64,000 nt of DNA from a virus. Its lineage: Duplodnaviria > Heunggongvirae > Uroviricota > Caudoviricetes. The translations under genes were made by a program, and so were the position numbers. The DNA lies in IMG/VR virus record IMGVR_UViG_3300012007_000011, positions 155 to 64,154 of that record, one strand, 5' to 3'. Under the pieces are notes generated by a model. That model saw nothing but the letters and a program-made list of their open reading frames with translations. It did no database searches and was not told where the DNA came from. Each line of letters begins with the position of its first letter. Position 1 is the stretch's first letter. Positions 1-46,411 of the stretch are shown here, in pieces.

Positions 1-179
1 AAAGTCCGAATAATCATTGTGATTTTGAAAAAGTCTCAAATATTTCTTCATTTTAACTTTAATTTTGTTTAAACAATTATTTTTATCTACAATATAAATA
101 TTGCAATTTTTCTTTAAAAAACATTTGGTAGTTTAATTTTTTTGCACTATCTTTGTAAAAGAACAAGTGAAAGTATAGT

Positions 180-515
180 ATGGCAACAGAATATGAAGGT
201 TTAGAAACGGTCAGTTCATTTTTAGATAAACATCAAGAATTAAGAGATGATATAGTTAATTTGTGGCACATTGAGAAAATATTAACCAACGTACAACTCA
301 GATATCTTTACCTTGTATCATTAATCAGTTCTGACAATATATACGATTTTGAGACTGCTGAAAAGGCAATGGAAAAGATAACTTTTCTCAAACGAAACCT
401 ACATTATCTTAATTTGGATGATGATGTTTTAAAAGAGGTGAAAAGATATATAAACAAAGGTATAAGAATCATTAATAAGGAAATCAAGGAGTATCAAGAT
501 GAAGTTAGAGATTAA
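180..515 (+). CDS. hypothetical protein (111 aa)
   Basis: Long ORF, first in a + strand gene run; 3' end overlaps the next gene. Confidence 0.4.
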   Translation: MATEYEGLETVSSFLDKHQELRDDIVNLWHIEKILTNVQLRYLYLVSLISSDNIYDFETAEKAMEKITFLKRNLHYLNLDDDVLKEVKRYINKGIRIINKEIKEYQDEVRD

Positions 516-954
516 TAACATTCCGTCAAAAAGTAAAAATGTAACGGAAAAAGATAGGGAGATTATAAACCGTGCATTATTTTCATATCAGATTGTATTG
601 GGTCAATATGAGAAATATACAGATGAAATGAAACAAAAGGATTTGGAAAGACTTGCAAAGCAAAATAACCAAAATCCGCTTGATACATTGAATCCGTTTA
701 ATGTTGACCTTACTGAAGAGAAAACATATGAACCAACGTTTGAAGATACAAAGACGTTTGTATATTCCTCTTGGGCAGAAGCAATTGCAAATGTCAAAAC
801 ACCACGTATATGTGATGGCGCAAAGAAAAAAGGTATCAGAAGACAAGCGTTTAGGGACGTACAAAACGGTAAATATCTTACAAAAAAAGTGAGAGACGTT
901 ATGAATGATTTCATAACAAGACTATCAGTTGGTAAAACAGAAAATGAAAAATAA
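499..954 (+). CDS. hypothetical protein (151 aa)
   Basis: ORF coupled to the upstream gene; no recognisable motif. Confidence 0.4.
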   Translation: MKLEINNIPSKSKNVTEKDREIINRALFSYQIVLGQYEKYTDEMKQKDLERLAKQNNQNPLDTLNPFNVDLTEEKTYEPTFEDTKTFVYSSWAEAIANVKTPRICDGAKKKGIRRQAFRDVQNGKYLTKKVRDVMNDFITRLSVGKTENEK

Positions 955-987
955 ATTTATGTTAAATTTTAAAACGTTTTAAAAATT

Positions 988-1464
988 ATGAGAACATTAC
1001 AAGTAACTGGCCACATTGTGGCTGATGCAGAGAAGAAACTTAGCAAAAGCGGTAAGGAATATCTTACATTCAGAATTGCAAACAATGAGTTTAATGACGA
1101 AAAGGGACAGGACGGAAAGCAAAAACCATATTGGATTAGCGTAACGTCACTTAATCAGAGACATTTCAGCATGACTCAGTATCTCACAAAGGGAAAACCC
1201 GTAATTGTCGTAGGTGATTATAGTGACAGAATTTATCAGAACAGAGAAGGAAATTGCGAGATTTCACGTGACATCCTTGCAAATGCTATCTATTTCCTTC
1301 CTGGTAGCGGAGAGAATGGAAACAGTTCTTCAACACCGAAGACAACAGAAACACCATCAGTTCAGACAAAGATGGAAACACCAAAGCCCACAACAGCAGA
1401 AATTAAAGTGCCACCTGTAACAAGTGCTGTAAACAATAGTGACGATGACGATTTGCCATTCTAA
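988..1464 (+). CDS. ssb: single-stranded DNA-binding protein
   Basis: OB-fold-like N-terminal region, Gly/Ser/Pro/Thr-rich linker and acidic C-terminal tail DDDDLPF (SSB tail consensus DDDIPF). Confidence 0.7.
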   Translation: MRTLQVTGHIVADAEKKLSKSGKEYLTFRIANNEFNDEKGQDGKQKPYWISVTSLNQRHFSMTQYLTKGKPVIVVGDYSDRIYQNREGNCEISRDILANAIYFLPGSGENGNSSSTPKTTETPSVQTKMETPKPTTAEIKVPPVTSAVNNSDDDDLPF

Positions 1465-1485
1465 TAGACACATAATGAAATATAA

Positions 1486-1520
1486 AAGGTGATAAACATT
1501 TAATTATCACCTTTTTATTT
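1486..1520. terminator. bidirectional rho-independent terminator
   Basis: AAGGTGATAA..loop..TTATCACCTT hairpin flanked by an A-run and a T-run, between convergent genes. Confidence 0.6.
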
Positions 1521-1526
1521 TGTATT

Positions 1527-2005
1527 TTATTTACCGTTCCATATATAATATGTTTGATAAGTCACATCTTCATTATTAATATTGAAAGTAATTGTAATTA
1601 CCCAATTAGTTGTTTTAGAAATAGTTGATGATAAATTACAGTTCCAGTTAATACCGTCTTCGCTTGTTGCTGATGCAGATTCCTTTAATTCTCCTGGTCC
1701 TAACATATTATCATTTTCATCATATTGTGGATAATGAATACTAATAATTGGATTATTAGCATTTACTGCACCGAGCATTGTCATAGTAAAAGGATTGTCA
1801 AAGAATGTAGTAGAATTACCGGTAATAAAAGGTACATTATAACCGTTTATTTGTGTAATTTTTTGTACCCAAGGATTGTAGTGTACCTCATTCTCAGTGA
1901 TACAGTGTGATACATTAGGTGTTATAAATGGGGTATCTCCCCCCCCCCCCCAATAAACGTTTCGTATTGGGTGTGTTCGTTAAAAAGTTTTAAATAATTT
2001 GCCAT
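1527..2005 (-). CDS. poly-G-interrupted adhesin-like gene (locus A), out of frame in this sequence; conserved 26-aa N-terminal module MANYLKLFNEHTQYETFIGGGG then a stop
   Basis: ATG at 2005 (- strand) opens a frame that runs into a G13 tract (C13 on + strand, 1939..1951) and stops at 1922..1924. The downstream 85-aa ORF (1527..1784) lies in the frame reached by adding 1 G (or removing 2). Paralogous to 11033..11619. Confidence 0.55.
1876..2005 (-). repeat. ~130-bp conserved 5' module shared with 11490..11619
   Basis: About 80-85% nucleotide identity from the ATG through the poly-G tract and ~80 bp beyond; similarity ends where the C-terminal domains diverge. Confidence 0.8.
1939..1951 (-). 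repeat. homopolymeric G13 tract (C13 on + strand) inside the coding sequence
   Basis: Counted directly; encodes the Gly run of FIGGGG; run length is 1 mod 3, which is the OFF state. Confidence 0.9.
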
Positions 2006-2071
2006 TATGTGTTTTTCTATATGAAATTAATTTTATCTTTTTCTATATAAATATCTGAATTTATTTTGAAA

Positions 2072-2095
2072 TTTGGGTGAAATGCACTATATTTG
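2072..2095 (+). promoter_or_regulatory. Bacteroidetes-type promoter (-7 TATATTTG at 2088..2095)
   Basis: TAnnTTTG motif ~35 bp upstream of the ATG at 2132; the nearest upstream TTTG (2072..2075) is only 12 bp away, so the -33 spacing is atypical. Confidence 0.4.
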
Positions 2096-2131
2096 CAACA
2101 AAGAATAACATAATATTTTTTAAATTGATAT

Positions 2132-2740
2132 ATGTTTAAACATAAATGTTATATAAGGAAAAATAATGAATTTCTCCGTGAAACATTAAAGAAATTGGGT
2201 TATAGTGAGTTTGCCCCCAATGATAAAGATACAATAATTGCCACTTTTGACGGACATGATACAAATTATTTTACGACAATAGATAAAGAAAGTATCAATA
2301 ATTTGGGTAATATGTTTATTGATTGCGGTACTTCTGAAACTTTATTCCTTGGTATTGCTTCAATTACGGATGAACATGATAAGTTTCAGTTTTTCACAAC
2401 ATTAGCCGATAGACATTGGTATAATTTGGGAACATATAGTCCAAAGGGTAGTCTTGAATTTTGCATGGTTACGGACAGACATATGGGACAACACCCATTG
2501 TTTGACAATATGACCGTGCCTGCAAAGAAATCAACCATTGAAGAACTTATGGCGAATTTCAAGGACAAGGAAGAGGACACTGAATTTTACAGCAAGATAC
2601 CAAATGAACGATGGAAAAAAGACATATATGACTTTGAATACTATCCACTTACAGAAGAGGAAAAGAAAGAGATAAATGAACTTTTAACCAAAGATGAAAA
2701 CATTGAATGTATATTCAGTTCAGCAAGTACTGAAGATTAA
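2132..2740 (+). CDS. hypothetical protein (202 aa)
   Basis: ORF downstream of the 2072..2095 promoter. Confidence 0.5.
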   Translation: MFKHKCYIRKNNEFLRETLKKLGYSEFAPNDKDTIIATFDGHDTNYFTTIDKESINNLGNMFIDCGTSETLFLGIASITDEHDKFQFFTTLADRHWYNLGTYSPKGSLEFCMVTDRHMGQHPLFDNMTVPAKKSTIEELMANFKDKEEDTEFYSKIPNERWKKDIYDFEYYPLTEEEKKEINELLTKDENIECIFSSASTED

Positions 2741-2814
2741 CTATTTTTAACATTATTTTCTTGGTTTATATAAAAAAATATTATTACTTTTGCAAAGTAA
2801 AATAGAGACAAAAT

Positions 2815-3057
2815 ATGCAGAAGAGGAAAATTGTAAAAGTAACTTATAAAAATGGCAAAGTTGACTATAAGGTAAAAAAGAGAATTTTTCCGTTTATTTG
2901 GATAACGGATTCCTATGACTATTGGTATGGTCCTGGTATTTGTGAAGTCGTATGTAGACATATGACACTGAAACAGGCGGAAAACTACATGGAATGCATT
3001 AGGAAAAAGGAAGATGAGCGGAAAGGTTCAAAAATAATAGAGGAAACTGATTTGTAA
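2815..3057 (+). CDS. hypothetical protein (80 aa)
   Basis: ORF after a TTTGCAAAG promoter-like motif at ~2795. Confidence 0.4.
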   Translation: MQKRKIVKVTYKNGKVDYKVKKRIFPFIWITDSYDYWYGPGICEVVCRHMTLKQAENYMECIRKKEDERKGSKIIEETDL

Positions 3058-3058
3058 T

Positions 3059-3604
3059 ATGGCAAAGATACATTATATCATAGGTGATGCAACACTTCCT
3101 ATTGAGACAGAAGCAGAGAACAGACTAATAGTTCATTGTTGCAATACGCTTGGTGCTTGGGGTGCGGGTTTTGTTGTTCCTCTTGGCAGACGTTATCCAT
3201 TGGCAAAAGAAAAGTATAAGAAGTTCATTGAGGAAAATAAGGGTAAATCCATTTTGGGTGAAGTGAACGAAGTACCTGTTGGGGAACATCTGTATGTTGA
3301 AAACCTTATTGGTCAGAGTTTTCTTTATAAGAAGCCAAATGGTGAAATACCTTGTAATTATATTGCAATTGAAACGGGTTTTCTCAACATAATAAGAAAA
3401 TGGTTTTCATATAACTCAACGATACACAAGGATAAGCAAAACTTTTCAATTCATATGCCACGTATAGGTTGTGGTCTTGCTGGTGGTGATTGGAAAACAA
3501 TTGAAGAAATTATATATAGAACATTCATTGATATTGCCGATGTGGATGTATATGTGTATGATTTAAAGGAACAAAAAGATACCATTTATGATAACAGAGG
3601 ATAA
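3059..3604 (+). CDS. Macro-domain protein (ADP-ribose binding/hydrolase fold)
   Basis: IIGDATLPIETEAENRLIVHCCNTLGAWGAGFV matches the macro-domain core GDIT..DAIVNAAN..L..GGGV; the later GCGLAGG motif matches; 181 aa is the right size. Confidence 0.5.
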   Translation: MAKIHYIIGDATLPIETEAENRLIVHCCNTLGAWGAGFVVPLGRRYPLAKEKYKKFIEENKGKSILGEVNEVPVGEHLYVENLIGQSFLYKKPNGEIPCNYIAIETGFLNIIRKWFSYNSTIHKDKQNFSIHMPRIGCGLAGGDWKTIEEIIYRTFIDIADVDVYVYDLKEQKDTIYDNRG

Positions 3605-3857
3605 GATAAAGGATATAATTCTAACAATGATTGAGAACAACATGTTGGATAGTACACGTATCTTTGACAAAGAATATGTCTTGGAGAGAGTTAATTCATA
3701 TATTAAATCAGCCAACATGGTACGTTCAATGATGAACATGCCACTATTATAAAAAACACAAAAAATATGAAGTTTAAGAAGGCAATGTATATTTTCATAC
3801 TTTTTCTGTTATTGTAATATTTATAATAAAAAGAAATAATATTTTAACATTTAAAGT

Positions 3858-5000
3858 ATGGCAAAAAAATTAACAACTGAAGAGTTTGTACAAAGAGCGA
3901 GAAAGGTACATGGTAATAAATACGATTATTCGAAAGTGGAGTACTTAAATAATAGGACAAAGGTATGTATAATTTGTCCCGAACATGGAGAGTTTTGGCA
4001 AACACCTGATAGTCATATGTCAGGGAATAAATGCCCAAAGTGTTCTGGAACCAAGAAATTAACAACAGAAGAATTTATAGAACAAGCAAGAAAGATTCAT
4101 GGAAATAAATATGATTATTCAAAAGTTGAATATATTAACAATCATAGCAAAGTATGCATCATATGTCCAGAACATGGAGAGTTTTGGCAAACACCAATAA
4201 ACCATTGTTCAAAAAATAATCATAATGGATGTCCAATATGTGCAAAAACAATAATTGGTAATAAATTAAGAAAAAATAATTCATGTTTTATTGAAAAAGC
4301 AAGAGAAGTACATGGTGATAAATATGATTATTCAAAGGTCGAATATATAAATAACAGAACAAAGGTTTGTATAATTTGTCCTAAACATGGAGAGTTTTGG
4401 CAAACACCTGTCAATCATTTAAAAGGTCATAATTGCCCTAAATGTATTGGAAGGGGTGCATATAAATTAACAACAGAAGAGTTTATTGAAAAAGCAAAAC
4501 AAATACATGGTGATAAATATGACTACTCAAAGGTCAAATATGTAAATGCAAAAACCAAAGTTTGTATAATCTGTCCGGAACATGGAGAGTTTTGGCAAAC
4601 ACCAACCAGTCATATTGATGGAAAATGTGGATGTCCAGATTGTAATAAATTATTCAATGAAAAGAAAATAGGCGTTTTTCTAAATGAAAATGGAATTAGA
4701 TATATAAAACAAAAAACATTTAAATGGTTAGGTAAATTAAGGTTGGATTATTATTTAGTAGATTATAATATAGCAATCGAATATCAAGGCGAACAACATT
4801 TTCACTCAGTAAAATATTTTGGTGGTAATAAAAGATTTATTGATAGAATAGAGAGAGATAAAAGAAAAAAAGAATTGTGTGATAAAAATAATGTAAAAAT
4901 ATTATATGTATCGTTTTATAAAAAACCAACATATGATGTTATAAATAATTTTAAAGATTTGTTATATGAAATTCAAAGAAATATTTACAGAAAATTATAG
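3858..5000 (+). CDS. homing-endonuclease-like protein: 4 tandem zinc-ribbon modules plus a Vsr/PD-(D/E)XK-like nuclease C-terminus
   Basis: Four ~48-aa repeats of KYDYSKVEY.NN.TKVCIICPEHGEFWQTP..H..G..CP.C; the C-terminus LDYYLVDYNIAIEYQGEQHF resembles the Vsr/DUF559 nuclease core. Paralogous to 33001..33996. Confidence 0.6.
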   Translation: MAKKLTTEEFVQRARKVHGNKYDYSKVEYLNNRTKVCIICPEHGEFWQTPDSHMSGNKCPKCSGTKKLTTEEFIEQARKIHGNKYDYSKVEYINNHSKVCIICPEHGEFWQTPINHCSKNNHNGCPICAKTIIGNKLRKNNSCFIEKAREVHGDKYDYSKVEYINNRTKVCIICPKHGEFWQTPVNHLKGHNCPKCIGRGAYKLTTEEFIEKAKQIHGDKYDYSKVKYVNAKTKVCIICPEHGEFWQTPTSHIDGKCGCPDCNKLFNEKKIGVFLNENGIRYIKQKTFKWLGKLRLDYYLVDYNIAIEYQGEQHFHSVKYFGGNKRFIDRIERDKRKKELCDKNNVKILYVSFYKKPTYDVINNFKDLLYEIQRNIYRKL

Positions 5001-6375
5001 CGTTAATTGGGATTTCCTATTAACAATATCGCCATTTTCAAAAATGGTTAATTTAGAACAAAACAAGGAGTGGCATAAGGAAGATTGTTGGAAACATACA
5101 GTACTGGTTACACAAGAAATGGAAAAATTACTTAAAAGAAATCTTATTGAGAGAGGTTCTGAGAATTGGGTTATGTGTATGGCTGCTGCCTTGTGTCACG
5201 ATTTGGGAAAGGCTGATACAACCAAATGGTCTGAGGAAAAAAATGATTGGACAACAAAGAATCATGGTGTTGTCGGTGAGAGGATTACACGTCATCTTTT
5301 CTATGATGAAAACATTGTTTTAAGGGAAAAGGTATGTTATATGGTACGTCACCATATGACACTTCATCATGTATATGACAAACCAGAGGAAACAAATAAA
5401 AGGTTGATAAAATTATCACATGGTATTGTTGAAATGAGATTTATGATTTTATTGAACATTGCAGATTCGTTAGGCTCATACAATGATATAGAAACTGAAG
5501 ATAGTATTTATGACAAAGAGATGAAACTTATTAACGATGTAAGTTGTCTGCGTTGTTATCAGAAACCTTATTCTTTTATTGATAAGTCGCAACTGATTAG
5601 GAATTTCATTGACTATACTGGTGAAGTTATAAACGATAGAAATGACTTTTGTGTTTATATTCTTTGTGGTTTTCCTGGTTGTGGTAAAAGTACGTATTAT
5701 AATATGTTTCTTAATTCAAAACCTATTATATCAAGAGATATAATTCGTGGTGAGTTAGGTATTGACGGTGCAACCACAACCAACGACAAAAAAGTTGTTG
5801 GTACAAGGGAAGAGGAAGATAAAGTATCTGAAATTTTTAATAAGAAAATGATTGAATATTGTGAAAATAAGGAAAGTTTTGTTCTTGACAATACTAATCT
5901 TAAATATCAATATCGTAAAGATTATCTGTTAAAAATAATGAAATATAATCCTAAAGTGAAGATTATATATATTGAAGCACCGAATTACATTAAGGACTGT
6001 ATTGACAGAAGAAAGGGTGAGATACCGAAGAGAGTCTATGACAGAATGGAGAATAATTTTGATTTTCCACAATTGTATGAATGTGATGAGTTAACAATTG
6101 TTAAACAAGTGACAATAGAACAAGACAATGTATTTGTGTTTAAAGGCGATTTTACACCTGATTTGATATGTAATACTAATACCGTTAATGGGCGTGATTA
6201 TATATCAAAAGTAAAAGTACTAAATGATTTGTACATAACAAGAGGCGCAATGATATTGGATGGCTATGAATGTTATGACAGTTGTGTCAAATATATGGAT
6301 GAATTAATCAGCACATATAAGAACATGTTTGACTATACCGAACTGTTTGGTGAAATACCCTTAAAAAATGATTAA
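4966..6375 (+). CDS. HD-phosphohydrolase fused to a T4-Pnk-like polynucleotide 5'-kinase
   Basis: N-terminus has H..HD (HTVLV...ALCHDLGKADT) plus further His clusters. C-terminus has Walker A GFPGCGKST, IISRDIIR, and VLDNTNL matching T4 Pnk GCPGSGKST...ISDTNLNPERR. The true start may be the ATG at 5044. Confidence 0.6.
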   Translation: MKFKEIFTENYSVNWDFLLTISPFSKMVNLEQNKEWHKEDCWKHTVLVTQEMEKLLKRNLIERGSENWVMCMAAALCHDLGKADTTKWSEEKNDWTTKNHGVVGERITRHLFYDENIVLREKVCYMVRHHMTLHHVYDKPEETNKRLIKLSHGIVEMRFMILLNIADSLGSYNDIETEDSIYDKEMKLINDVSCLRCYQKPYSFIDKSQLIRNFIDYTGEVINDRNDFCVYILCGFPGCGKSTYYNMFLNSKPIISRDIIRGELGIDGATTTNDKKVVGTREEEDKVSEIFNKKMIEYCENKESFVLDNTNLKYQYRKDYLLKIMKYNPKVKIIYIEAPNYIKDCIDRRKGEIPKRVYDRMENNFDFPQLYECDELTIVKQVTIEQDNVFVFKGDFTPDLICNTNTVNGRDYISKVKVLNDLYITRGAMILDGYECYDSCVKYMDELISTYKNMFDYTELFGEIPLKND

Positions 6376-6378
6376 TAT

Positions 6379-6672
6379 ATGGCTTGGTTTGAAATAAACG
6401 GAAATCGCATTGTAAGCAAAGATTACAACCCTTGGAGTGCGGATAATAGTGCTGTGTGGGGCTTATATATAGGTGGTAGGTGGTGTTTGGACTACACTTG
6501 GAAACTTATGTTTGGTATATCAACTGATGATTGGAATAACAGATGCAGCAACATTAAAACCGACAATGATTTTTACAATTTCTGTGAGTGGTTGGGGGTA
6601 TACTATAAAAAGGATGGTGTCATATATAGATGTGGTGAAAAATATAATGAATATGGTGAAAAGTTAAAATAA
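6379..6672 (+). CDS. hypothetical protein (97 aa, Trp-rich)
   Basis: ORF. Confidence 0.4.
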   Translation: MAWFEINGNRIVSKDYNPWSADNSAVWGLYIGGRWCLDYTWKLMFGISTDDWNNRCSNIKTDNDFYNFCEWLGVYYKKDGVIYRCGEKYNEYGEKLK

Positions 6673-6678
6673 AAAAAA

Positions 6679-6936
6679 ATGAAAGAAGAAAAATATAAAA
6701 GAGCCGTTGAGATAAAAGATAAAATTTACTCATTACAGAAAAACCTTGAAGACTTAAAAGGCGGCCATTGGGACAAAACCCGTATCGAACTTAAAACAGG
6801 TTATTCCGACATGGGAATGGATTTTACGGTTTCAACAACATTTGACGAGGAAATTGGATATAAAATTCGTGATTTTATAAATGACACGATTAACAGTAAA
6901 ATTGCTGAATTGGAAAATGAGTTTGAAAATTTATAG
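6679..6936 (+). CDS. hypothetical protein (85 aa, coiled-coil)
   Basis: ORF. Confidence 0.4.
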   Translation: MKEEKYKRAVEIKDKIYSLQKNLEDLKGGHWDKTRIELKTGYSDMGMDFTVSTTFDEEIGYKIRDFINDTINSKIAELENEFENL

Positions 6937-6943
6937 GTATTTT

Positions 6944-7783
6944 ATGGAAAAGATAGAAAAATGGATACCACAAGTGGGTGATACTGTTAGGTTAAAAGGT
7001 ACTGAAAAGCCATTGTATCATTTATGTGGAATAACAAATTATGGTATGTTTTCATTTGTACAAGAAATGGAAAATGGTATTGCTGGTGGTGAGGTTTCTG
7101 AATATAGTTTACTTAGGAACTATGAACTTGTGGAACGCCCACAAAAATTAGAGGATTTCTTAAATGATATGATAACAAAGCCAATTTTGGAAAATATGAA
7201 TAAAACAAGATTTGAAAAATTTGGGAATGTGATGATAGATTTGGAAACACTATCAACGCACAACAATGCTGCCATTATAGAGATTGGTGCTGTTGAGTTT
7301 AATAAATATACGGGTGAGGTTGGCGAGAAGTTCAATGTAATTATTGACCCAAAGGATTGGTGTAAAAATGATAGACACGTTGACGGTGAAACAATTCAGT
7401 GGTGGTTTAACCAGACAAATGAAGCAAGAAAAAGATTTACACGCAAAAATAATGCGTATGTTACACTTAAGCAAGCGTTATGGCAATTGAGATATTTCAT
7501 TATGGATTGTGACACTGTTGATGATGATAAAGATGTTGTTGTATGGGGAAACGGTGCAACAATGGACATTAGCATATTAGAAAGTGCATTCAATTATTTC
7601 GACATAGAAGTACCTTGGAAATTTTGGGCAGTGAATGATGTAAGAACTATTGTTGACCTTAATCCGTCAATTAAGAAGAATTGTGAATTTGATTGTGGTG
7701 TTCGGCATAGTGCTATTGCTGATTGTCTCTATCAGATAAAATATACAACAGATACCATAAAATCATTAAAACTGAAATCATGA
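6944..7783 (+). CDS. DEDDh-family 3'-5' exonuclease (DnaQ-like)
   Basis: MIDLETLS (Exo I D.E), a conserved acidic motif, and HSAIADC (Exo III H...D). Start taken at the first ATG after the upstream stop. Confidence 0.65.
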   Translation: MEKIEKWIPQVGDTVRLKGTEKPLYHLCGITNYGMFSFVQEMENGIAGGEVSEYSLLRNYELVERPQKLEDFLNDMITKPILENMNKTRFEKFGNVMIDLETLSTHNNAAIIEIGAVEFNKYTGEVGEKFNVIIDPKDWCKNDRHVDGETIQWWFNQTNEARKRFTRKNNAYVTLKQALWQLRYFIMDCDTVDDDKDVVVWGNGATMDISILESAFNYFDIEVPWKFWAVNDVRTIVDLNPSIKKNCEFDCGVRHSAIADCLYQIKYTTDTIKSLKLKS

Positions 7784-8430
7784 CATTAAAAGACTTGAAG
7801 CCATTTATTGAGAAGTTGGGGGAATATGATAAGATTTGTATTTTCGATAAAAAAGAAGGCTTTCTTATTGATACAATATATATTAACCCTATTGACAATA
7901 AACTTTATGAATATATTAGTATTTTTTATCAACATAAAGTTGACTATGATAAAACTCCTTATTTTTTAAGGAATTATAAATATGAGGATGTTGAAATAAA
8001 GATATTATCAATGAAAGAATGGTGTGCATTTGTGCGGAAACGTAATTATGATTCATTTATGGAAGCATTAAATGATACAAAAGGAATATACTTTTGGAGA
8101 AATGGTATGAATAACGCTAAATTAATATACAATCAGATTATTACAGACCAAGGAAAATTTGTGTCATTTGGTTTGTTTAAAAACGATGAAGACGAAAAAT
8201 ATAAGGGTGTCCTTTTATCGGTATGCGCAAGTGACGAGGATTATTATTATGTGTATTTAAAGGAAGATAATACTATAGGTCTAATGACTTGTGTCGGTTG
8301 CTATAAAGTAACAGACGAGAATTACCAAACAAAGATATCTGATAAAGAAATAGCAAAAATGTTAAGTGATAAATTTGATTCTGACACAAGTTTGGACGCA
8401 TTGATATATCGTGGAAAATACTCCATTTAA
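7780..8430 (+). CDS. hypothetical protein (~216 aa)
   Basis: ORF with an ATGA overlap onto the exonuclease gene. Confidence 0.45.
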   Translation: MTLKDLKPFIEKLGEYDKICIFDKKEGFLIDTIYINPIDNKLYEYISIFYQHKVDYDKTPYFLRNYKYEDVEIKILSMKEWCAFVRKRNYDSFMEALNDTKGIYFWRNGMNNAKLIYNQIITDQGKFVSFGLFKNDEDEKYKGVLLSVCASDEDYYYVYLKEDNTIGLMTCVGCYKVTDENYQTKISDKEIAKMLSDKFDSDTSLDALIYRGKYSI

Positions 8431-8449
8431 GTATTTTTAACATAAAGTA

Positions 8450-8481
8450 TTTGGTTAATGCAAATAAAAATATTAGTTTTG
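8450..8481 (+). promoter_or_regulatory. Bacteroidetes sigma-A type promoter (TTTG-N20-TAGTTTTG)
   Basis: -33 TTTG at 8450..8453, -7 TAnnTTTG at 8474..8481; part of the conserved TTTTTAAC..ATTTGG module. Confidence 0.6.
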
Positions 8482-8518
8482 TAAATGTAAAATAACTTTG
8501 AATAAAATTTGAATAACT

Positions 8519-8770
8519 ATGGGAATTTTTAATAAAAAGAAAGTAGAAAATGTAATATCTGTTGAGGGTTATGCAGATGATTTATATGAAATAAGTAAGA
8601 ATGGCGAGATGAAACAGACAAGATTGTTCTATGTAATTCCTGAGAATCTTGAAGAGAATCAAGAAACAATGGACTTATGTATTACTTCGACTAATCCATA
8701 TCATTCGTTTCCGATTTTTGATAATCTATTGGGTAAGAAAATTAGAATTACAGTTGACATTATTGATTAA
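8519..8770 (+). CDS. hypothetical protein (83 aa)
   Basis: ORF after the promoter. Confidence 0.45.
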   Translation: MGIFNKKKVENVISVEGYADDLYEISKNGEMKQTRLFYVIPENLEENQETMDLCITSTNPYHSFPIFDNLLGKKIRITVDIID

Positions 8771-8800
8771 ACAGAACTATTTATAGACAGTATCAAAAAA

Positions 8801-9658
8801 ATGAACAAGAAAAAATTGATAGACATTTTTAATATTGATAAACCCAACATTTGTTTTGTTGGTGATATACATGGTGAATTTAATTCACTGCAAGGTTTAA
8901 TGAAGAAAACAAATTTCAAAGATACTGCCTATATTGTGTGTGGTGATATTGGTTTTGGCTTTAATAAGAAAGAATATTATTCCAAAATCTTCAATAAACT
9001 GACAAAAACAGCCTCCAAACTTAATTGTGAATTTATTTTTATTAGGGGTAATCACGATGATAAGAAATATTTTGACAAACGTTTAATCAACAGAAAATGT
9101 TTTAAGACAATTCCTGATTATTCCGTCATACAGACACCTTTATATAATGTATTGTGTATTGGTGGTGCAATTTCAATTGACAGAACATATAGAAAATTGG
9201 TTTTAAAGGAAAATGCTTTGAAATATTCTATTTATCATGGTTGCACTCCCAATGAAGCTGAGAAGTTATGTCAGCAAGTATATTGGGATGATGAACCTTG
9301 TTACTATGATGAAGAGAAATTAACGCAATTAAAACTAAATAACATAAACATTGATATTGTTTGTACCCATACATGTCCGTCATTCACAAAACCCTTTGGA
9401 AAAGAAAATATTGGCTATTGGTTATCCAAAGATGAAAGCCTTGAACGTGATATTGACAATGAGCGTGAGGTAATGGATAAGGTTTATAATAAACTTAAAA
9501 CAGACGGTCACACCCTTGATATGTGGTTCTATGGACATTTTCATTATCATAACGTGCAATTTGTTGATAAGACTAAATTTGTAATGCTTGATATGTATCG
9601 TAACGGAAACTATGACATTTATGATGTTTACAATACAAAAGAAACTATTTATAATTGA
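8801..9658 (+). CDS. calcineurin-like metallophosphoesterase
   Basis: GDIHG, GDIGFG and GNHDD motifs in canonical order. Confidence 0.6.
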   Translation: MNKKKLIDIFNIDKPNICFVGDIHGEFNSLQGLMKKTNFKDTAYIVCGDIGFGFNKKEYYSKIFNKLTKTASKLNCEFIFIRGNHDDKKYFDKRLINRKCFKTIPDYSVIQTPLYNVLCIGGAISIDRTYRKLVLKENALKYSIYHGCTPNEAEKLCQQVYWDDEPCYYDEEKLTQLKLNNINIDIVCTHTCPSFTKPFGKENIGYWLSKDESLERDIDNEREVMDKVYNKLKTDGHTLDMWFYGHFHYHNVQFVDKTKFVMLDMYRNGNYDIYDVYNTKETIYN

Positions 9659-9687
9659 TATAATGTATTAATATTTGTTGTAAAATC

Positions 9688-10170
9688 ATGAAACAAACAA
9701 TAAGATTAACAGAATCAGAACTTAGAAATCTGATTACTAAGACAGTAAAAAGAGTTTTAAAAGAAAATAAAATAAATGAAGTAAGTGGTTGGACGCTTGA
9801 AAAAGATGATGTTACATGGGTAAATGATGCGGAAAGTGGTGCTTCTGATAAGGCTTGGATGGTAAGACTTTGGCCAGGTAGTGGCTATATTCTTCCTGCA
9901 TTTGGCGCATATGCTTCTTCAGAAGAAGATGCCCTTGAAAAAGTTGTAGCATATCTTGACCAAGAAGGTGATGATAGTTTCTTCTGTGACGATTATATCG
10001 ACCAAATGAGAGAGGAATTGGCAGAAGAAGGTAAAAACGAAGAGGAAATAAACGAAGAAATACAAGCAATGTTTTGTTATGTTGATGCAACAATGGATGG
10101 TGGTGAATGTCATTATGTATTTTGGGAAAATTTGAGTGTTTATCCATATGATGAAAAAAGGTTTAGGTAA
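9688..10170 (+). CDS. hypothetical protein with a conserved N-terminal I.L.ESEL.N.I..TVK.VL.E motif
   Basis: N-terminal 30 aa paralogous to 13173..13511; acidic C-terminal half. Confidence 0.45.
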   Translation: MKQTIRLTESELRNLITKTVKRVLKENKINEVSGWTLEKDDVTWVNDAESGASDKAWMVRLWPGSGYILPAFGAYASSEEDALEKVVAYLDQEGDDSFFCDDYIDQMREELAEEGKNEEEINEEIQAMFCYVDATMDGGECHYVFWENLSVYPYDEKRFR

Positions 10171-10195
10171 AACAAAATAAATAAAAAGTTAATTT

Positions 10196-11017
10196 ATGCA
10201 AATTAATAACAATTGTGAGATTTATAATGGTGACTGCATAGAAGTAATGCAGGAAATAATAGATAAAGGTGTTAAGGTGGATTTGACTGTTACAAGTCCA
10301 CCTTATGATAACCTTAGAAGTTATGAAAATGAAGTGACGTGGGATTTTGAGAAATTTAAGGATGTGGCTAACAAACTATATGAAATAACTGCTGATGGTG
10401 GTGTTGTTATATGGGTTGTAAATGACCAAGTAAGAAATGGTTCTGAGACAGGTACTTCATTTAAACAAGCACTTTATTTCATGGAAATTGGTTTCAGATT
10501 GCATGATACGATGATTTTTCAAAAAGCAAACTATATTCCTTTGACACATAACAGATATGAACAGTCATTTGAATATATGTTTTGTTTCTCAAAAGGTAAA
10601 CCAAAGACATTTAATCCCATTATGATTCCTTGTAAAAACGCAGGAAAGGTTGAAAGTTATGGTAATGAAAGACGTTCATTGTTAGACAAGAAGCAAGCGA
10701 TGAGAGCACCTGAGGGTAAAACTTTTATGAAGACAAAAGACACCAAGTATCACCCTAATATTTTTACATATACACTTGGTGGTCAAAAAACAGGACACCC
10801 TGCTGTGTTTCCTGACAAGTTGGCAGAAGACCAAATAATAACTTGGTCAAATGAAAATGATTTGGTTTTTGACCCATTTATGGGAAGTGGAACAACTGGT
10901 AAAATGGCAATAATAAATAATAGAAGATTTATTGGTGTTGAACTTGTAAAAGACTATTATGATATTTCAGTCAGAAGAATTGAAAATGAAACACAAATAG
11001 AAAAAGCAGCCTTTTGA
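10196..11017 (+). CDS. DNA methyltransferase (beta-class N6A/N4C; motif IV SPPY before motif I)
   Basis: TVTSPPYDN (motif IV) and VFDPFMGSGTTG (motif I) near the C-terminus; paralogous to 20184..20984. Confidence 0.7.
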   Translation: MQINNNCEIYNGDCIEVMQEIIDKGVKVDLTVTSPPYDNLRSYENEVTWDFEKFKDVANKLYEITADGGVVIWVVNDQVRNGSETGTSFKQALYFMEIGFRLHDTMIFQKANYIPLTHNRYEQSFEYMFCFSKGKPKTFNPIMIPCKNAGKVESYGNERRSLLDKKQAMRAPEGKTFMKTKDTKYHPNIFTYTLGGQKTGHPAVFPDKLAEDQIITWSNENDLVFDPFMGSGTTGKMAIINNRRFIGVELVKDYYDISVRRIENETQIEKAAF

Positions 11018-11031
11018 GACTGCTTTTTTAT
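11005..11031. terminator. weak bidirectional terminator
   Basis: AGCAG..CTGCT stem followed by a T-run between convergent genes; imperfect. Confidence 0.3.
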
Positions 11032-11032
11032 T

Positions 11033-11619
11033 TTATTTTTCCCATCTAAATGCTTGATTATTATAAGAATATATTGTATCTACAATATCACTATTCAAAG
11101 AATTGTTATTACAGTCAGCAAACGCATAGTCAGCAATTGTTGTAATAGAATCTGGTATATTAATTGTTTCTAAATTATCACAAAATCCGAAAGCATAACT
11201 TTCAATAGTGGTGACAGCATTATCAAGTGTAACTGATACAAATGCACAGTCACTAAAAGCCTTTCGGCCGATGACTGTGGGGTTTTTTAATGTGTATCTA
11301 ACAGTATGTTCACCAACAGACAACTGATATTCACCATACACTCTATCAAGGTCAGCAATTGACACCTCAACACCATCAACCTCAATTTTTTTAAATAATG
11401 AAGTAGGCGATACATTGCCATATAATTTTGTTGGAGAAGTTGCATCCTCTACATTAAATATAGCAATAACAGGTCCGGGTAGAACAATTGGGTTATAATG
11501 TACATCATTTTCCTCAATGCAATGTGACACGTTAGGTTTTATGAATGGGGTGTCTCCCCCCCCCCAATAAACGTTTCGTATTGGGTATGGTTTTCAAAAA
11601 GTTTTAAATATTTAGGCAT
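11033..11619 (-). CDS. poly-G-interrupted BspA-type leucine-rich-repeat adhesin-like gene (locus B), out of frame in this sequence
   Basis: ATG at 11619 gives MPKYLKLFENHTQYETFIGGG, then a G10 tract (C10 at 11556..11565), then a stop. Adding 1 G joins it to the 165-aa ORF 11033..11530. That ORF carries LRR units (IGRKAFSDCAFVSVTL / IESYAFGFCDNLETINIPDSITTIADYAFADC). Confidence 0.55.
11490..11619 (-). repeat. ~130-bp conserved 5' module shared with 1876..2005
   Basis: See locus A. Confidence 0.8.
11556..11565 (-). repeat. homopolymeric G10 tract (C10 on + strand) inside the coding sequence
   Basis: Counted directly; same phase (1 mod 3) as the locus A tract. Confidence 0.9.
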
Positions 11620-11764
11620 AGTTCCTTTTTTTAATTTATTATTTATTATAAATAGTTTAGTACTCTATCACTAAGTTTTATTGTTTTCTTCATATTAATA
11701 TTGCGTATACCTTTATTCATAAATAAATATGGAATTGAATATTAAAAAAAAAAACAATAAATAT

Positions 11765-11795
11765 TTTGTTAATTCACATTATTGAATTATATTTG
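11765..11795 (+). promoter_or_regulatory. Bacteroidetes-type promoter (TTTG-N19-TATATTTG)
   Basis: Motif match; ~100-nt leader before metK. Confidence 0.5.
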
Positions 11796-11894
11796 CAAAC
11801 AGAGGAAAGATTTGGGGCATATTGCAACCTCTTTAAAAATGCTAAAAAGTCCCATTTAATAAATTATTTGTTTAACTTTTTAAATATTGATTAA

Positions 11895-13079
11895 ATGGTA
11901 AAAAGAATTAGTGAGAATGGAAACAAACTCATTGCAAGCGAGTTTGTTAGTTTTGGACATCCCGACAAGATTGCTGACCAAATTGCTGATGCAATTGTTG
12001 ATAATTTTTTGGCACGTGATAAAAATGCACGTACAGGAATTGAAGTCTTGGTTAAGGATAATATTGTTGTCCTTGGTGGTGAGGTTAATTCAACAGCAAG
12101 TTTCGATTATGAAAAAATTGTTCGTTTTGTTTTTTCTGAACTTAATTTTCCGTCAAATCATCATTTGTCACCGGATGAAATTAAAATTATTAACTTGATT
12201 GGAAAACAGTCAGAGGAAATACATAGTGGTGTTGACAAGGTAGATGAAATTGGGGCAGGGGACCAGGGATTCATGGTTGGCTACGCTACAAATGAAACAA
12301 GTGTATATATGCCTCTTGGACATTACATTGCTAAGAAAATCTGTAATTATGTTGCAAATTGTAGTCAATTGGGTCCTGATACTAAATCACAAGTTATTAT
12401 AGAATATGATAGTAATAACAAGGCAATAGGTATTCATAGCATTCTTGTTTCCACTATGCACCAATGTTCTCTTGAAGTGTGTCGTGAACGTGTAACTAAC
12501 GCAATTATGAATAATTTGGTTGGTATTGATAAGGATATCTATGAAAAATTCATAAAGGATAAAAATGTTAGAGTTGATGTAAATCCTTGTGGTTCTTGGC
12601 AAATTGGCGGTCCGATTTCTGATTGTGGAATTACAGGACGAAAATTGGTGGTAGATTCCTATGGTGGTTATTGTAACGTTGGTGGTGGCAATTACAGTGG
12701 TAAGGATTTCTCAAAGGTTGACCGTTCAGGTGCATATATGGCACGTTATCTTGCAAAGAACATTGTTGCAAGTGGCTTCTGTGATACTTGCCGTGTTACC
12801 TTGTCGTATATGATTGGTGTTGCACAACCTTGTTCCGTTGAAATTGATGTCAATCGTAATTTTGACAAACTTCCACAATTGAAAAAATGGATTTTGGAGA
12901 ATATTGATTTAACTCCAAATGGAATTACAGAAAGATTGCGTCATGGTGTGCTTTTATATGATTGTTCAAAATACGGACATTTCGGTTTTAAAGACAAAAA
13001 AGACAAAGATGTAATAACACTTCAAGAAAGAAAGTGGGAAAATCTTGACCTTGTTGAAGACTTGAAACAATTTGTATAA
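11895..13079 (+). CDS. metK: S-adenosylmethionine synthetase
   Basis: EFVSFGHPDKIADQIADAIVD matches MetK ESVSEGHPDKIADQISDA; GAGDQGFMVGYA matches MetK GAGDQGLMFGYA; 394 aa. Confidence 0.85.
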   Translation: MVKRISENGNKLIASEFVSFGHPDKIADQIADAIVDNFLARDKNARTGIEVLVKDNIVVLGGEVNSTASFDYEKIVRFVFSELNFPSNHHLSPDEIKIINLIGKQSEEIHSGVDKVDEIGAGDQGFMVGYATNETSVYMPLGHYIAKKICNYVANCSQLGPDTKSQVIIEYDSNNKAIGIHSILVSTMHQCSLEVCRERVTNAIMNNLVGIDKDIYEKFIKDKNVRVDVNPCGSWQIGGPISDCGITGRKLVVDSYGGYCNVGGGNYSGKDFSKVDRSGAYMARYLAKNIVASGFCDTCRVTLSYMIGVAQPCSVEIDVNRNFDKLPQLKKWILENIDLTPNGITERLRHGVLLYDCSKYGHFGFKDKKDKDVITLQERKWENLDLVEDLKQFV

Positions 13080-32986: not shown

Positions 32987-33021
32987 AAGATGGTGGACTA
33001 TTAGTGTATTCCACCATCTTT
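32987..33021. terminator. bidirectional terminator hairpin overlapping the 3' end of the - strand gene
   Basis: AAAGATGGTGGA..loop..TCCACCATCTTT. Confidence 0.4.
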
Positions 33022-33996
33022 CTTGTATTTAATGTCATATAACATTTCGTTTAAATCTGCATAATATGTGTGTTTATTTTTAAAAGTAGTTGGTACATTT
33101 TGGTCAGTGAAATAAAAAACATCAATACCATGTTCTTTGCATTGTTTAAATTTTAATTCATCTCGTTCTATTAATTCGTTAAATGTAAATATTTTTGTTT
33201 CTGTTGAAATGTTTGAAGAAAATGACGTTGCTTGAAAATGTTGTATTCCTTGACATTCAATTGCACTGTTATATTCCGGTAAATAAAAATCTAATTTCAT
33301 ATTAGTTTTATTTTTTAACCATTTAAACGTCTTTTCTTCAATAAAATATATTTTATTCTCTGACAAAAAATTAGATAAATATTTTTCAAGTTTTGATTTT
33401 TGACACTTTGGACAACCATTTCCTTGTAAATGTTTGTCTGGTGTTTGCCAAAACTCACCATGTTCTGGACATATGATACATACCTTTGTTTTGTTATTAA
33501 TATAATTTACGTTAGAATAATCATACAGGTTGTTATGTATATATTTTGCTTTCTCTATAAAAGTATTATTGTTTGAGGCTAATTTTTGTTTGTATTTTAT
33601 TTTTCCACATTCAGGACATCCGCAACCTCTGATATGTGAATTTGCTTCTTGCCAAAATTCACCATGTTCTGGACATATGATACAAACCTTTTTAGTGTTA
33701 TCAATATAGATTGTCTTAGAATAATCGTATTTGTTATTATGCACCCTTTGTGCTTCTTTAATAAAATCTTCATTTGTTTTGGTTAAACGCTTTTTATGGT
33801 TTTCGTATTTACATTTTCTACATCCTTTACCACTTAAATGGCAATTTGGCGTTTGCCAAAACTCTCCGTGTTCGGGACATATGATGCACACCTTTGTTTT
33901 ATTGTTAACATATTCCACCTTTGAATAATCATACTTGTCACCATGTACTTTTCTTGCATGTTCTATAAATTCCTCTGTTGTTACTCTTTGTTGCAT
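33001..33996 (-). CDS. homing-endonuclease-like protein: 3 zinc-ribbon modules plus a Vsr/PD-(D/E)XK-like C-terminus (paralogue of 3858..5000)
   Basis: The same repeat signature (YDYSKVEY.NN.TKVCIICPEHGEFWQ..H..G.GC..C) three times, and a C-terminal LDFYLPEYNSAIECQGIQHF. Start taken at the ATG at 33996 (the track start is a GTG at 34002). Confidence 0.6.
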   Translation of the reverse strand: MQQRVTTEEFIEHARKVHGDKYDYSKVEYVNNKTKVCIICPEHGEFWQTPNCHLSGKGCRKCKYENHKKRLTKTNEDFIKEAQRVHNNKYDYSKTIYIDNTKKVCIICPEHGEFWQEANSHIRGCGCPECGKIKYKQKLASNNNTFIEKAKYIHNNLYDYSNVNYINNKTKVCIICPEHGEFWQTPDKHLQGNGCPKCQKSKLEKYLSNFLSENKIYFIEEKTFKWLKNKTNMKLDFYLPEYNSAIECQGIQHFQATSFSSNISTETKIFTFNELIERDELKFKQCKEHGIDVFYFTDQNVPTTFKNKHTYYADLNEMLYDIKYKKDGGIH

Positions 33997-34003
33997 AATC
34001 ACA

Positions 34004-40344: not shown

Positions 40345-40375
40345 TTTGTAATTTCTAAAAATTATCTTATATTTG
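40345..40375 (+). promoter_or_regulatory. Bacteroidetes sigma-A type promoter (TTTG-N19-TATATTTG)
   Basis: Motif and spacing match. Confidence 0.55.
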
Positions 40376-40413
40376 CAAATGGAAAAAGAATAGTAACAAT
40401 AAAAGTATAAAAT

Positions 40414-46369: not shown

Positions 46370-46401
46370 TTTGGTTGTTTGAAAAATAAACACTATATTT
46401 G
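46370..46401 (+). promoter_or_regulatory. Bacteroidetes sigma-A type promoter (TTTG-N20-TATATTTG) driving the non-coding RNA
   Basis: Canonical module; the predicted start is ~46407..46412, exactly where the tRNA-like acceptor strand begins; no ORF follows. Confidence 0.6.
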
Positions 46402-46411
46402 CAAATGAAAA

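Follow-up and report, generated by a model that had tools for sequence, protein, structure and literature searches.

We analysed a stretch of 64,000 nucleotides (nt) from a Caudoviricetes genome (IMG/VR record IMGVR_UViG_3300012007_000011, positions 155 to 64,154), hereafter the window, in which two small (-)-strand genes, A and B, begin with the same N-terminal module, carry a run of guanines (polyG tract) within it and continue into unrelated bodies. At the level of genotype, it is highly likely that the tract is a hypermutable switch inside this shared module and that the heads behind the module are exchanged by recombination. We lean, less firmly, towards the fuller reading that the genes encode paralogous, phase-variable and head-swapping binding proteins docked through the common module, most likely to the virion. 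The architecture, a polymorphism of tract length with matching frame states, and the footprints of recombination were all observed.

The 5' ends of genes A and B form a direct repeat (1873-2019 and 11490-11633) with 79-82% nt identity and a three-base difference inside the homopolymer. The similarity sets in just 5' of the ATG, within a few bases of it, and extends through 18 codons, the G run and a further 22 codons to the motif VHYNP, where it ends abruptly; no conservation was seen further upstream in the alignment of A with B. Alignment of the two proteins after repair of their frames was limited to residues 1-58, of which 41/58 were identical (E 6e-25). An earlier note on this DNA had described a constant module joined to unrelated bodies at two loci, an arrangement that would dissolve if the likeness were confined to the homopolymer or to low-complexity sequence. 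The alignment ran well past the G tract; the shared module therefore far exceeds the homopolymer and is not a low-complexity artefact, and the bodies resolved into a predicted immunoglobulin (Ig)-like sandwich in A and a BspA-type leucine-rich repeat (LRR) in B.

Both copies are out of frame as assembled, a point absent from the earlier note. From its ATG, gene A reads MANYLKLFNEHTQYETFI and then 13 G, and gene B reads MPKYLKLFENHTQYETFI and then 10 G, each soon reaching a stop codon, and the bodies (DTPFI.PNVSHC...) are open in a frame other than that of the ATG (Table 1). One added G, i.e., 14 in A and 11 in B, fuses leader and body into proteins of 159 and 195 residues, respectively. The frame rule is that n = 2 mod 3 (8, 11, 14) joins the ATG to the body, giving in-frame proteins of 155/210 residues in relatives, and that at other lengths translation stops after 22-31 codons, 5-6 codons past the tract. 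Both tracts begin 18 codons after the ATG. The out-of-frame alleles carry no second lesion downstream, the body frames being open over 411 nt (A) and 522 nt (B).

Table 1. Positions of the two genes, their parts and associated features in the window
Feature	Positions	Strand	Remarks
Gene A, ATG	2005-2003	-	lone among (+) genes; between SSB gene (988-1464) and 202-residue open reading frame (ORF; 2132-2740)
Copy A 5' ORF, as assembled	1922..2005	-	27 codons, MANYLKLFNEHTQYETFIGGGGEIPHL, then TAA (1924-1922)
Copy A N-terminal module	1872..2005	-	to ...VHYNP, split by G tract; matches N-module profile
Copy A polyG tract	1939..1951	-	13 G; out of frame; in frame at 11 or 14
Copy A body frame	1527..1937	-	DTPFITPNVSHC...YYIWNGK*; head 1871 down to 1527, predicted Ig-like beta-sandwich
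Putative gene-conversion patch beside tract	1887..1935	-	16/23 mismatches to contig L059
Terminator-like hairpin	1484..1515	both	common to copy A (-) and SSB gene (+)
Gene B, ATG	11619-11617	-	lone among (+) genes; between N6/N4 DNA methyltransferase (10196-11017) and SAM synthetase (11895-13079)
Copy B 5' ORF, as assembled	11539..11619	-	26 codons, MPKYLKLFENHTQYETFIGGGETPHS, then TAA (11541-11539)
Copy B N-terminal module	11489..11619	-	to ...VHYNP; alignment with copy A
Copy B polyG tract	11556..11565	-	10 G; out of frame; in frame at 11
Copy B body frame	11033..11554	-	head 11488 down to 11033, beta domain and BspA-type LRR
Terminator-like hairpin	11001..11028	-	after copy B
Third family member	1..51	-	MKKYLRLFQNHNDYSDF...; start at 51, cut by left window edge
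Motif TATATTTGCAA	2088-2098, 11788-11798, 40368-40378, 46394-46404		plus 17 one-mismatch sites

In a window of 31.7% G+C, the two tracts are the sole G/C runs of at least 6 in 64 kb, against an expectation of 0.002 for runs of at least 10. GGG accounts for 5.5% of the Gly codons in its 55 long ORFs, whose 45 Gly-Gly pairs include no GGG-GGG. Homologues that lack the tract have differing linkers at its site (SGGTM, TEDFI, ARQNLI), and glycine is therefore not required there by the protein. Taken together, it appears from base composition and codon usage to be the DNA run itself, rather than the glycines, that selection maintains. A/T runs of at least 9 occur in intergenic DNA only and the other 55 long ORFs are intact, from which it follows that the assembly is not generally unreliable at homopolymers.

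Tract length differs between genomes with nearly identical flanks. Three assemblies of SRR948090, the window's own sample, give 13 and 10 G alike because they derive from the same reads. Close relatives on contigs of up to 368 kb have the same gene order as the window, and at their SSB-adjacent locus the tract is bordered by 30 identical nt on either side, with 0-6 differing bases in 1.6 kb of flank. There, 9 G were found in 45 contigs, 10 G in 17 and 12 G in 5-6, all out of frame, and 11 G, in frame, in 3; a single flank haplotype bears 10, 11 and 12 G. Gene A of the window itself has 13 G here versus 9 G in SRR32996067 (contig L059), the heads being 99.7% identical. Among the listed cluster members of gene B and its orthologues, 29 contigs have a full in-frame N-terminus, 23 an alternative frame and 39 a start at or just after the tract. 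One of these proteins, P0309 (IGGGGD), is an in-frame allele of the window's gene B, and over the residues inspected it equals the repaired protein except for Ser in place of Pro at residue 2. Nine further polyG members from Joint Genome Institute (JGI) metagenomes are a mix of in-frame and out-of-frame alleles; two contigs among them hold two members each, and one such contig is mixed in state.

Across the related ~360-kb phage contigs, therefore, flanks at least 99% identical enclose tracts of 9-13 G, in-frame and out-of-frame alleles are both present, and in-frame alleles of both window genes exist elsewhere, which bears out the suggestion in the earlier note that the modules are switchable. 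Judged on sequence, varying lengths with frame states to match are what a hypermutable contingency locus leaves behind in a population. Among relatives (contigs L052 and L046; cluster members P0295 and P0297), those of the 'LGGGEMIL' subtype have a body-frame ATG directly after the tract, and those of the 'IGGGGD' type have a +1-frame ATG just before it (MKHLLGGG...). In such relatives, some out-of-frame alleles might yield N-terminally truncated proteins without the first half of the module; no alternative ATG of either kind is present in the window copies. In the contig L062, from a metagenome-assembled genome (MAG; JBGUUU010000036.1, locus 1953-1997), an artefact reading G11-T-G20-C13 lies exactly at the expected polyG site. 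Contig breaks at the tract were not used as a sign of heterogeneity, because polyG also gives technical dropouts.

The module heads a large family. A protein search with repaired gene A returned 52 relatives that have only the first ~45 residues in common, with many differing bodies and several on contigs of 100-368 kb. With a profile of the module, 1,919 representatives of 50%-identity clusters were found, 601 of them at E <=1e-10. The module is 41-45 residues long, with the consensus M.KYLKLFENHTQYETF-loop-PNVSHC..ENEVHYNP. Among the 150 representatives listed, proteins range from 47 to 710 residues and the module almost always starts at residue 1, a few calls lying up to 70 residues past the called start. 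Thirteen module positions are invariant among 34 aligned ON-state modules, and six are invariant and eight nearly so across 117 representatives; such conservation over 1,919 divergent clusters implies purifying selection. Bodies in the 117 sampled members comprised LRR_5 (53), Lcl_C (2) and SpaA (1), the remainder having no Pfam match, and weak FISUMP and PARCEL-repeat signals were seen in other members. The constant N-terminus with variable heads that had been proposed from two loci thus holds for a whole family with LRR_5, lectin-like, Ig-like and other bodies. A linker with at least three glycines occurs in 49/193 sampled members, i.e., about a quarter, in several linker contexts.

The earlier note had also anticipated more copies, and a third member does exist: it begins at window position 51 and is cut off by the left edge. 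In contig L027 from the same sample, this gene has the linker KGTTDFIL, without a G tract, followed by a FISUMP-like head, and it is thus constitutive. An exact-match scan of IMG/VR with the window's own module DNA found nothing, but the profile-based scan did find members. A tblastn search of 50,697 deposited phage records gave no N-module match, just LRR matches in unrelated records, and a near-identity search of positions 1400-12000 against deposited phage genomes gave two trivial matches only. With these searches empty but for LRR, the family has no characterised relative. Two recent jumbo-phage surveys contained no mention of leucine-rich, BspA, polyG, homopolymer or phase variation. In two different family genes, on contigs L020/L076 (IMGVR_UViG_3300028591_000969) and L078 (1472-1474), a TAG occupies the very codon that encodes the conserved Gln of the module (HT*YE), reflecting either recurrent nonsense mutation or local TAG-to-Gln recoding; TAG serves as a stop in neighbouring loci.

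An AlphaFold model of repaired gene B, built from 36 aligned sequences, had a mean predicted local distance difference test (pLDDT) score of 82.5. The module is predicted to fold into a strand (residues 5-8), a helix (11-21), a loop (22-30) and two further strands (31-34 and 39-42), with block-mean pLDDT of 70-91, and the Gly run is placed in the loop between the helix and strand 31-34. What had been taken for a 20-residue leader peptide would thus belong to a small folded domain, of which it makes up the first half and in whose loop the Gly run lies. Hydropathy ruled out a Sec or lipoprotein signal peptide, the maximum 11-residue Kyte-Doolittle mean being 0.65-0.85 and the longest hydrophobic run 2-3 residues; a secretory role of the N-terminus, as formerly proposed, is unlikely because the module has no hydrophobic core. 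Beyond the module, gene B is predicted to form a beta domain (51-111) and LRR turns (115-172); this head scored above the Pfam gathering threshold for LRR_5 (BspA-type), and the LRR fold was recovered. The head of gene A, for which no family match was found, is predicted as a beta-sandwich (block-mean pLDDT 70-91 over residues 71-159), and a fold search with its model returned weak Ig-like matches only (best E 0.07).

Comparison with relatives pointed to exchange of heads at a fixed locus. The window and contig L001 are 94-95% identical from upstream of gene A through the module to ~1871, the end of VHYNP, where identity breaks off; it resumes at ~1487, past the stop codon and inside the terminator hairpin. 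Between the breakpoints, the window has an Ig-like head (383 nt) and L001 an LRR head (537 nt), so that the exchangeable cassette spans ~1488-1870. In L056 and L058 the neighbouring 111-residue protein is 100% identical, yet another LRR-like head occupies the gene A locus, and relatives L046 and L052 carry an A-type head on a different module subtype. At least three head types were found at this locus. Against L059, the window shows 23 mismatches in 1,972 nt, 16 of which fall within 49 nt between the tract and VHYNP; the L059 version of this patch resembles gene B (88%). A head swap with its breakpoint at the module end, together with a short converted patch adjoining the tract, argues that the module supplies the homology both when heads are exchanged and when short patches are converted between paralogues, the tract bordering the patch on one side, in agreement with the earlier proposal that the repeats are recombination substrates. 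No inverted repeat pairs bracket gene A or B, and neither an invertase nor a diversity-generating retroelement (DGR) reverse transcriptase (Mu G segment/BPP-1 type) was found among the neighbours examined.

These observations suggest the following model. The two loci would be paralogues in a very large, undescribed family of small modular phage proteins (~150-700 residues), each composed of the N-terminal module and an exchangeable binding domain (BspA-type LRR, Ig-like sandwich, FISUMP/Lcl_C lectin-like, PARCEL-like repeats or other). In the window's lineage, a run of G's encodes the module loop, and slipped-strand mispairing at replication would alter its length. With only n = 2 mod 3 joining ATG and body, each gene would act as a heritable and reversible on/off switch; in the assembly, A and B would be off, each one G short, and the third, tract-less copy constitutive. 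The module would also serve as recombination homology, heads being swapped at a fixed locus and short patches converted beside the tract. If switching is fast and takes place within populations, a phage population may display varying combinations of heads docked at one common site. Given adhesin-type heads without secretion signals on one conserved small domain, we infer, as the simplest reading, that the module docks the heads to a common partner. As docking place we tentatively favour the virion, where the proteins may serve in receptor binding or decoration, by analogy with the modular build of tail fibres and with the receptor-binding genes under polyG control in Fletchervirus.

Several points weigh against this reading. 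Virion attachment is argued by analogy; no structural genes were found nearby among the neighbours examined, and no promoter for the module genes was recognised upstream. The N-module has no entry in Pfam, NCBIfam, PHROGs or PDB sequence searches, and the fold search was uninformative on it, results for the B model being dominated by LRR with no known fold matched to the module. Tract lengths were read from assembled contigs, from which a mixture of states within a population and the rate of switching can only be inferred. G runs of 9-13 are difficult for Illumina sequencing and for assemblers, several contigs end at the tract, and the artefact in L062 cautions against trusting tract lengths from short-read assemblies. 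Finally, the SSB-adjacent locus of relatives is in frame in only ~4% of contigs, which fits counter-selection or a mostly silent gene equally well as bet-hedging.

The module could, alternatively, be a packaging leader that targets the capsid in the manner of the T4 internal proteins, the products being loaded in the head and injected with the DNA, e.g., against host defences. The genes are indeed lone cassettes among early-type and metabolic genes, and a near-invariant I/V-x-E at module residues 35-37 resembles the L/I-x-E cleavage motif of the T4 prohead protease. T4 Ip1-3 likewise have just an N-terminal packaging leader in common and occupy hypervariable loci (PMC12373910, PMC3012670). The module, however, has 41-45 residues and is predicted to fold (pLDDT 70-91), as opposed to ~10 residues in the T4 leader; the heads have typical extracellular adhesin folds (BspA LRR, lectin-like, Ig-like); and neither a sequence relation to the T4 proteins nor an N-module match in the deposited phage records was found. 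We therefore regard a packaging leader as unlikely, although it is the main rival, and likewise unlikely its corollary that polyG lets the phage drop a protein turned liability, e.g., one sensed by a host system. Improbable, in our judgement, is transcriptional or translational slippage on the G run as the main control, in which case alleles would normally be out of frame, with full-length protein made as a small, set fraction. Both window copies stand in the frame that is restored by a -1 ribosomal slip or by one additional G in the mRNA, GGG is a rare codon here, a slip on a G run would keep codon-anticodon pairing, and the SSB-adjacent gene is out of frame in most assemblies. Tract length is nevertheless unfixed and all three frames occur, with locus B in frame in 29/91 listed contigs; 9 G, the commonest off length at the SSB-adjacent locus, would have to be corrected by a slip in the direction opposite to that required by the window copies; and neither a stimulatory structure nor an Rfam match was detected. 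Because length and frame vary, slippage is not the primary control; it could add leakiness to out-of-frame alleles on top of a DNA switch. A programmed frameshift or slippage site with an out-of-frame arrangement fixed across strains was rejected, the frame being variable and in-frame alleles common.

That the lengths differ only through mistakes of sequencing or assembly at a hard homopolymer, the genes being always intact or simply broken, gains some credit from the frequent contig ends at the tract, the chimeric G/C artefact in L062 and the common origin of the agreeing SRR948090 assemblies. Nine G nonetheless recurs in 45 contigs from several studies and assemblers, the other lengths form recurrent classes of their own, the remaining long ORFs of the window are intact with A/T runs of at least 9 only between genes, and the run is made of a codon that the genome otherwise avoids and is kept at the same site in paralogues, all of which makes error very improbable. 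The chance is slimmer still that these are decaying or selfish moron cassettes without phage function, with the G run as an inactivating accident. In favour are the off state of both window copies, the small size and isolation of the genes, their position on the opposite strand and their variation between strains; against this stand the purifying selection implied by the invariant module positions, the lack of a second downstream lesion in off alleles and the persistence of in-frame alleles in nature.

PolyG-less members from the rumen carry a different element at the same place. Their module loop is encoded by a perfect 19-23-nt palindrome, (T)AGGCAAAATT-T/A-AATTTTGCCT(A); as DNA it folds (-8.2 kcal/mol) into a hairpin whose stem has 10 bp and whose loop has 3 nt. 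The 19-mer occurs seven times in IMG/VR, each time within the module family. The hairpin-loop triplet is TTA (Leu) in four genes (L072, L075, L076, L077) and TAA (stop) in three different genes (L071, L073 and L074, e.g., L074:12371-12389), the two forms being exact reverse complements. Downstream of the centre, L074 (TAA) and L076 (TTA) match without a difference over 130 nt; upstream, they diverge. Recoding of the in-frame TAA was rejected, since the long ORFs of these loci mainly end in TAA. On the basis of these seven loci, we raise as a speculation, itself on the unlikely side, that the module loop is an evolved 'switch slot' filled by differing hypermutable DNA devices, polyG here and, in relatives, a hairpin-loop inversion that would serve as a reversible on/off switch, a kind of phase variation not described before. 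If true, such a slot combined with head swapping would give a giant phage a combinatorially variable adhesin set docked through one common module.

The neighbours of these genes function in replication, repair and nucleotide metabolism or are homing endonucleases (SSB, exonuclease, phosphoesterase, methyltransferase, MetK, radical SAM, RNA ligase). A motif upstream of A and B, TTGCAAATATA, was considered as their promoter and rejected, being the reverse strand of a Bacteroidota-type -7 box that serves neighbouring (+) genes. Read on the (+) strand, TATATTTGCAA has 21 sites in the window versus 7.4 expected, mostly in this orientation; those beside A and B, the two for which position relative to the gene start was checked, sit upstream of neighbouring (+) genes. 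It contains TAnnTTTG, which we take to be the Bacteroidota -7 promoter box, and so hints at the type of promoter that the phage uses. Family members lie on MAG contigs labelled Bacteroidaceae and Prevotella, and the LRR heads resemble Bacteroides surface proteins. From the box, the labels and the heads, none of which is proof, the hosts are probably Bacteroidota. The carriers of the family are uncultured ~360-kb giant phages of ruminant and other gut microbiomes. The names of relatives' contigs (XIEF21, STEW19) suggest ruminant studies, and two MAG matches are labelled reindeer and water buffalo omasum; these labels are unconfirmed.

Other features of the region were noted in passing. A SAM-II (long-loop) riboswitch (RF01726; 11796-11855, (+) strand; 46.4 bits versus a gathering score of 44) lies directly upstream of the S-adenosylmethionine (SAM) synthetase gene, and a SAM-lyase-like ORF (PF23780) follows that gene within 1.5 kb, on a gene called just past a 112-residue ORF; the phage is thus predicted to have a riboswitch-controlled metK beside a SAM-degrading enzyme. 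IS605-family TnpB genes (OrfB_IS605 / Cas12f-like) are found, in relatives of the window's 1-6400 region, beside the SSB gene and near an HD/AAA_33 gene (L001-L005:4282-5406; L046:239-1489), and these insertions are absent at the same positions of the window. Homing/HNH-endonuclease-type ORFs at 3858-5000 (+) and 33001-34002 (-) contain four tandem ~190-nt repeats (DUF723 / treble-clef zinc fingers), with endonuclease repeat family D1 at 3885-4647.

The nearest parallel in phages is Fletchervirus of Campylobacter, for which hypermutable polyG tracts in receptor-binding protein genes are described (Sorensen et al. 2021, Cell Rep 35:109214, as cited in PMC11959909 and PMC12823448). Experimental evidence of polyG phase variation comes from one phage group only, and a recent review calls it 'an exceptional case' (PMC11959909). 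In both systems an intragenic G run sets the frame of a phage gene, with a putative binding role here, and on and off states are mixed. Sorensen et al. 2021 reportedly also found, by survey, polyG tracts in many other phage genera. Unlike in Fletchervirus, to which there is no sequence relation (the N-module is absent from the 50,697 deposited phage records), the tract here is placed in the loop of an N-terminal module of 45 residues, common to many paralogues whose bodies are interchangeable, and the carriers are uncultured ~360-kb phages with probable Bacteroidota hosts and putative receptor binders. The polyG-switch logic of one phage group is thus now seen in uncultured ~360-kb gut and rumen phages, inside a module heading about two thousand divergent proteins, and by that logic several family members per genome would switch independently. 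Should the heads serve in receptor binding or decoration, giant phages would have here a concrete way to hedge against variable Bacteroidota surfaces, and the module would be a portable docking unit with plug-in binding domains, open to testing and engineering. For annotation, hypothetical proteins that appear 'split' or truncated at the N-terminus, of which metagenome catalogues hold thousands, are accounted for as out-of-frame alleles of one family.

Modular tail fibres and tailspikes also combine a conserved N-terminal anchor with an exchangeable C-terminal receptor-binding domain. They resemble the present family in their constant N-terminus, variable binding head and recombination at the domain boundary, but the proteins described here are short, have no recognisable fibre or trimerisation region and are encoded by scattered single genes outside the structural module; such modularity is discussed in a preprint (bioRxiv 10.64898/2026.05.12.724579). 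The T4-type internal proteins (Ip1-3 and relatives) have a conserved capsid-targeting leader and hyperplastic loci (PMC12373910; PMC3012670, citing Repoila 1994). The likeness is one of layout only, in that unrelated bodies share an N-terminus alone, related phages differ at these loci and cassettes can be exchanged through the common 5' end; the T4 leader, by contrast, has ~10 residues and is cleaved, as against 41-45 residues with a predicted fold and a mutational switch here, and the present heads are adhesin-like rather than enzyme inhibitors. Bacterial simple-sequence contingency loci of Campylobacter, Neisseria and Haemophilus (PMC3025981, PMC2831843) likewise place a homopolymer in the 5' part of a surface or binding gene, with three frame states and several independently switching paralogues per genome, whereas here the loci are virus-borne, presumably replicated by phage machinery, and combined with head exchange. 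The BspA-type LRR surface proteins of Bacteroidota (LRR_5; PDB 4fs7, 3sb4, 4fdw) correspond to the copy B head and to 53/117 sampled members, but the phage proteins have no signal peptide or lipobox and bear a phage-specific N-module instead. New with respect to these systems are the module family itself, the siting of the switch within the loop of a docking-type domain that many paralogues share, and the fact that giant, uncultured phages, probably of Bacteroidota, carry it.

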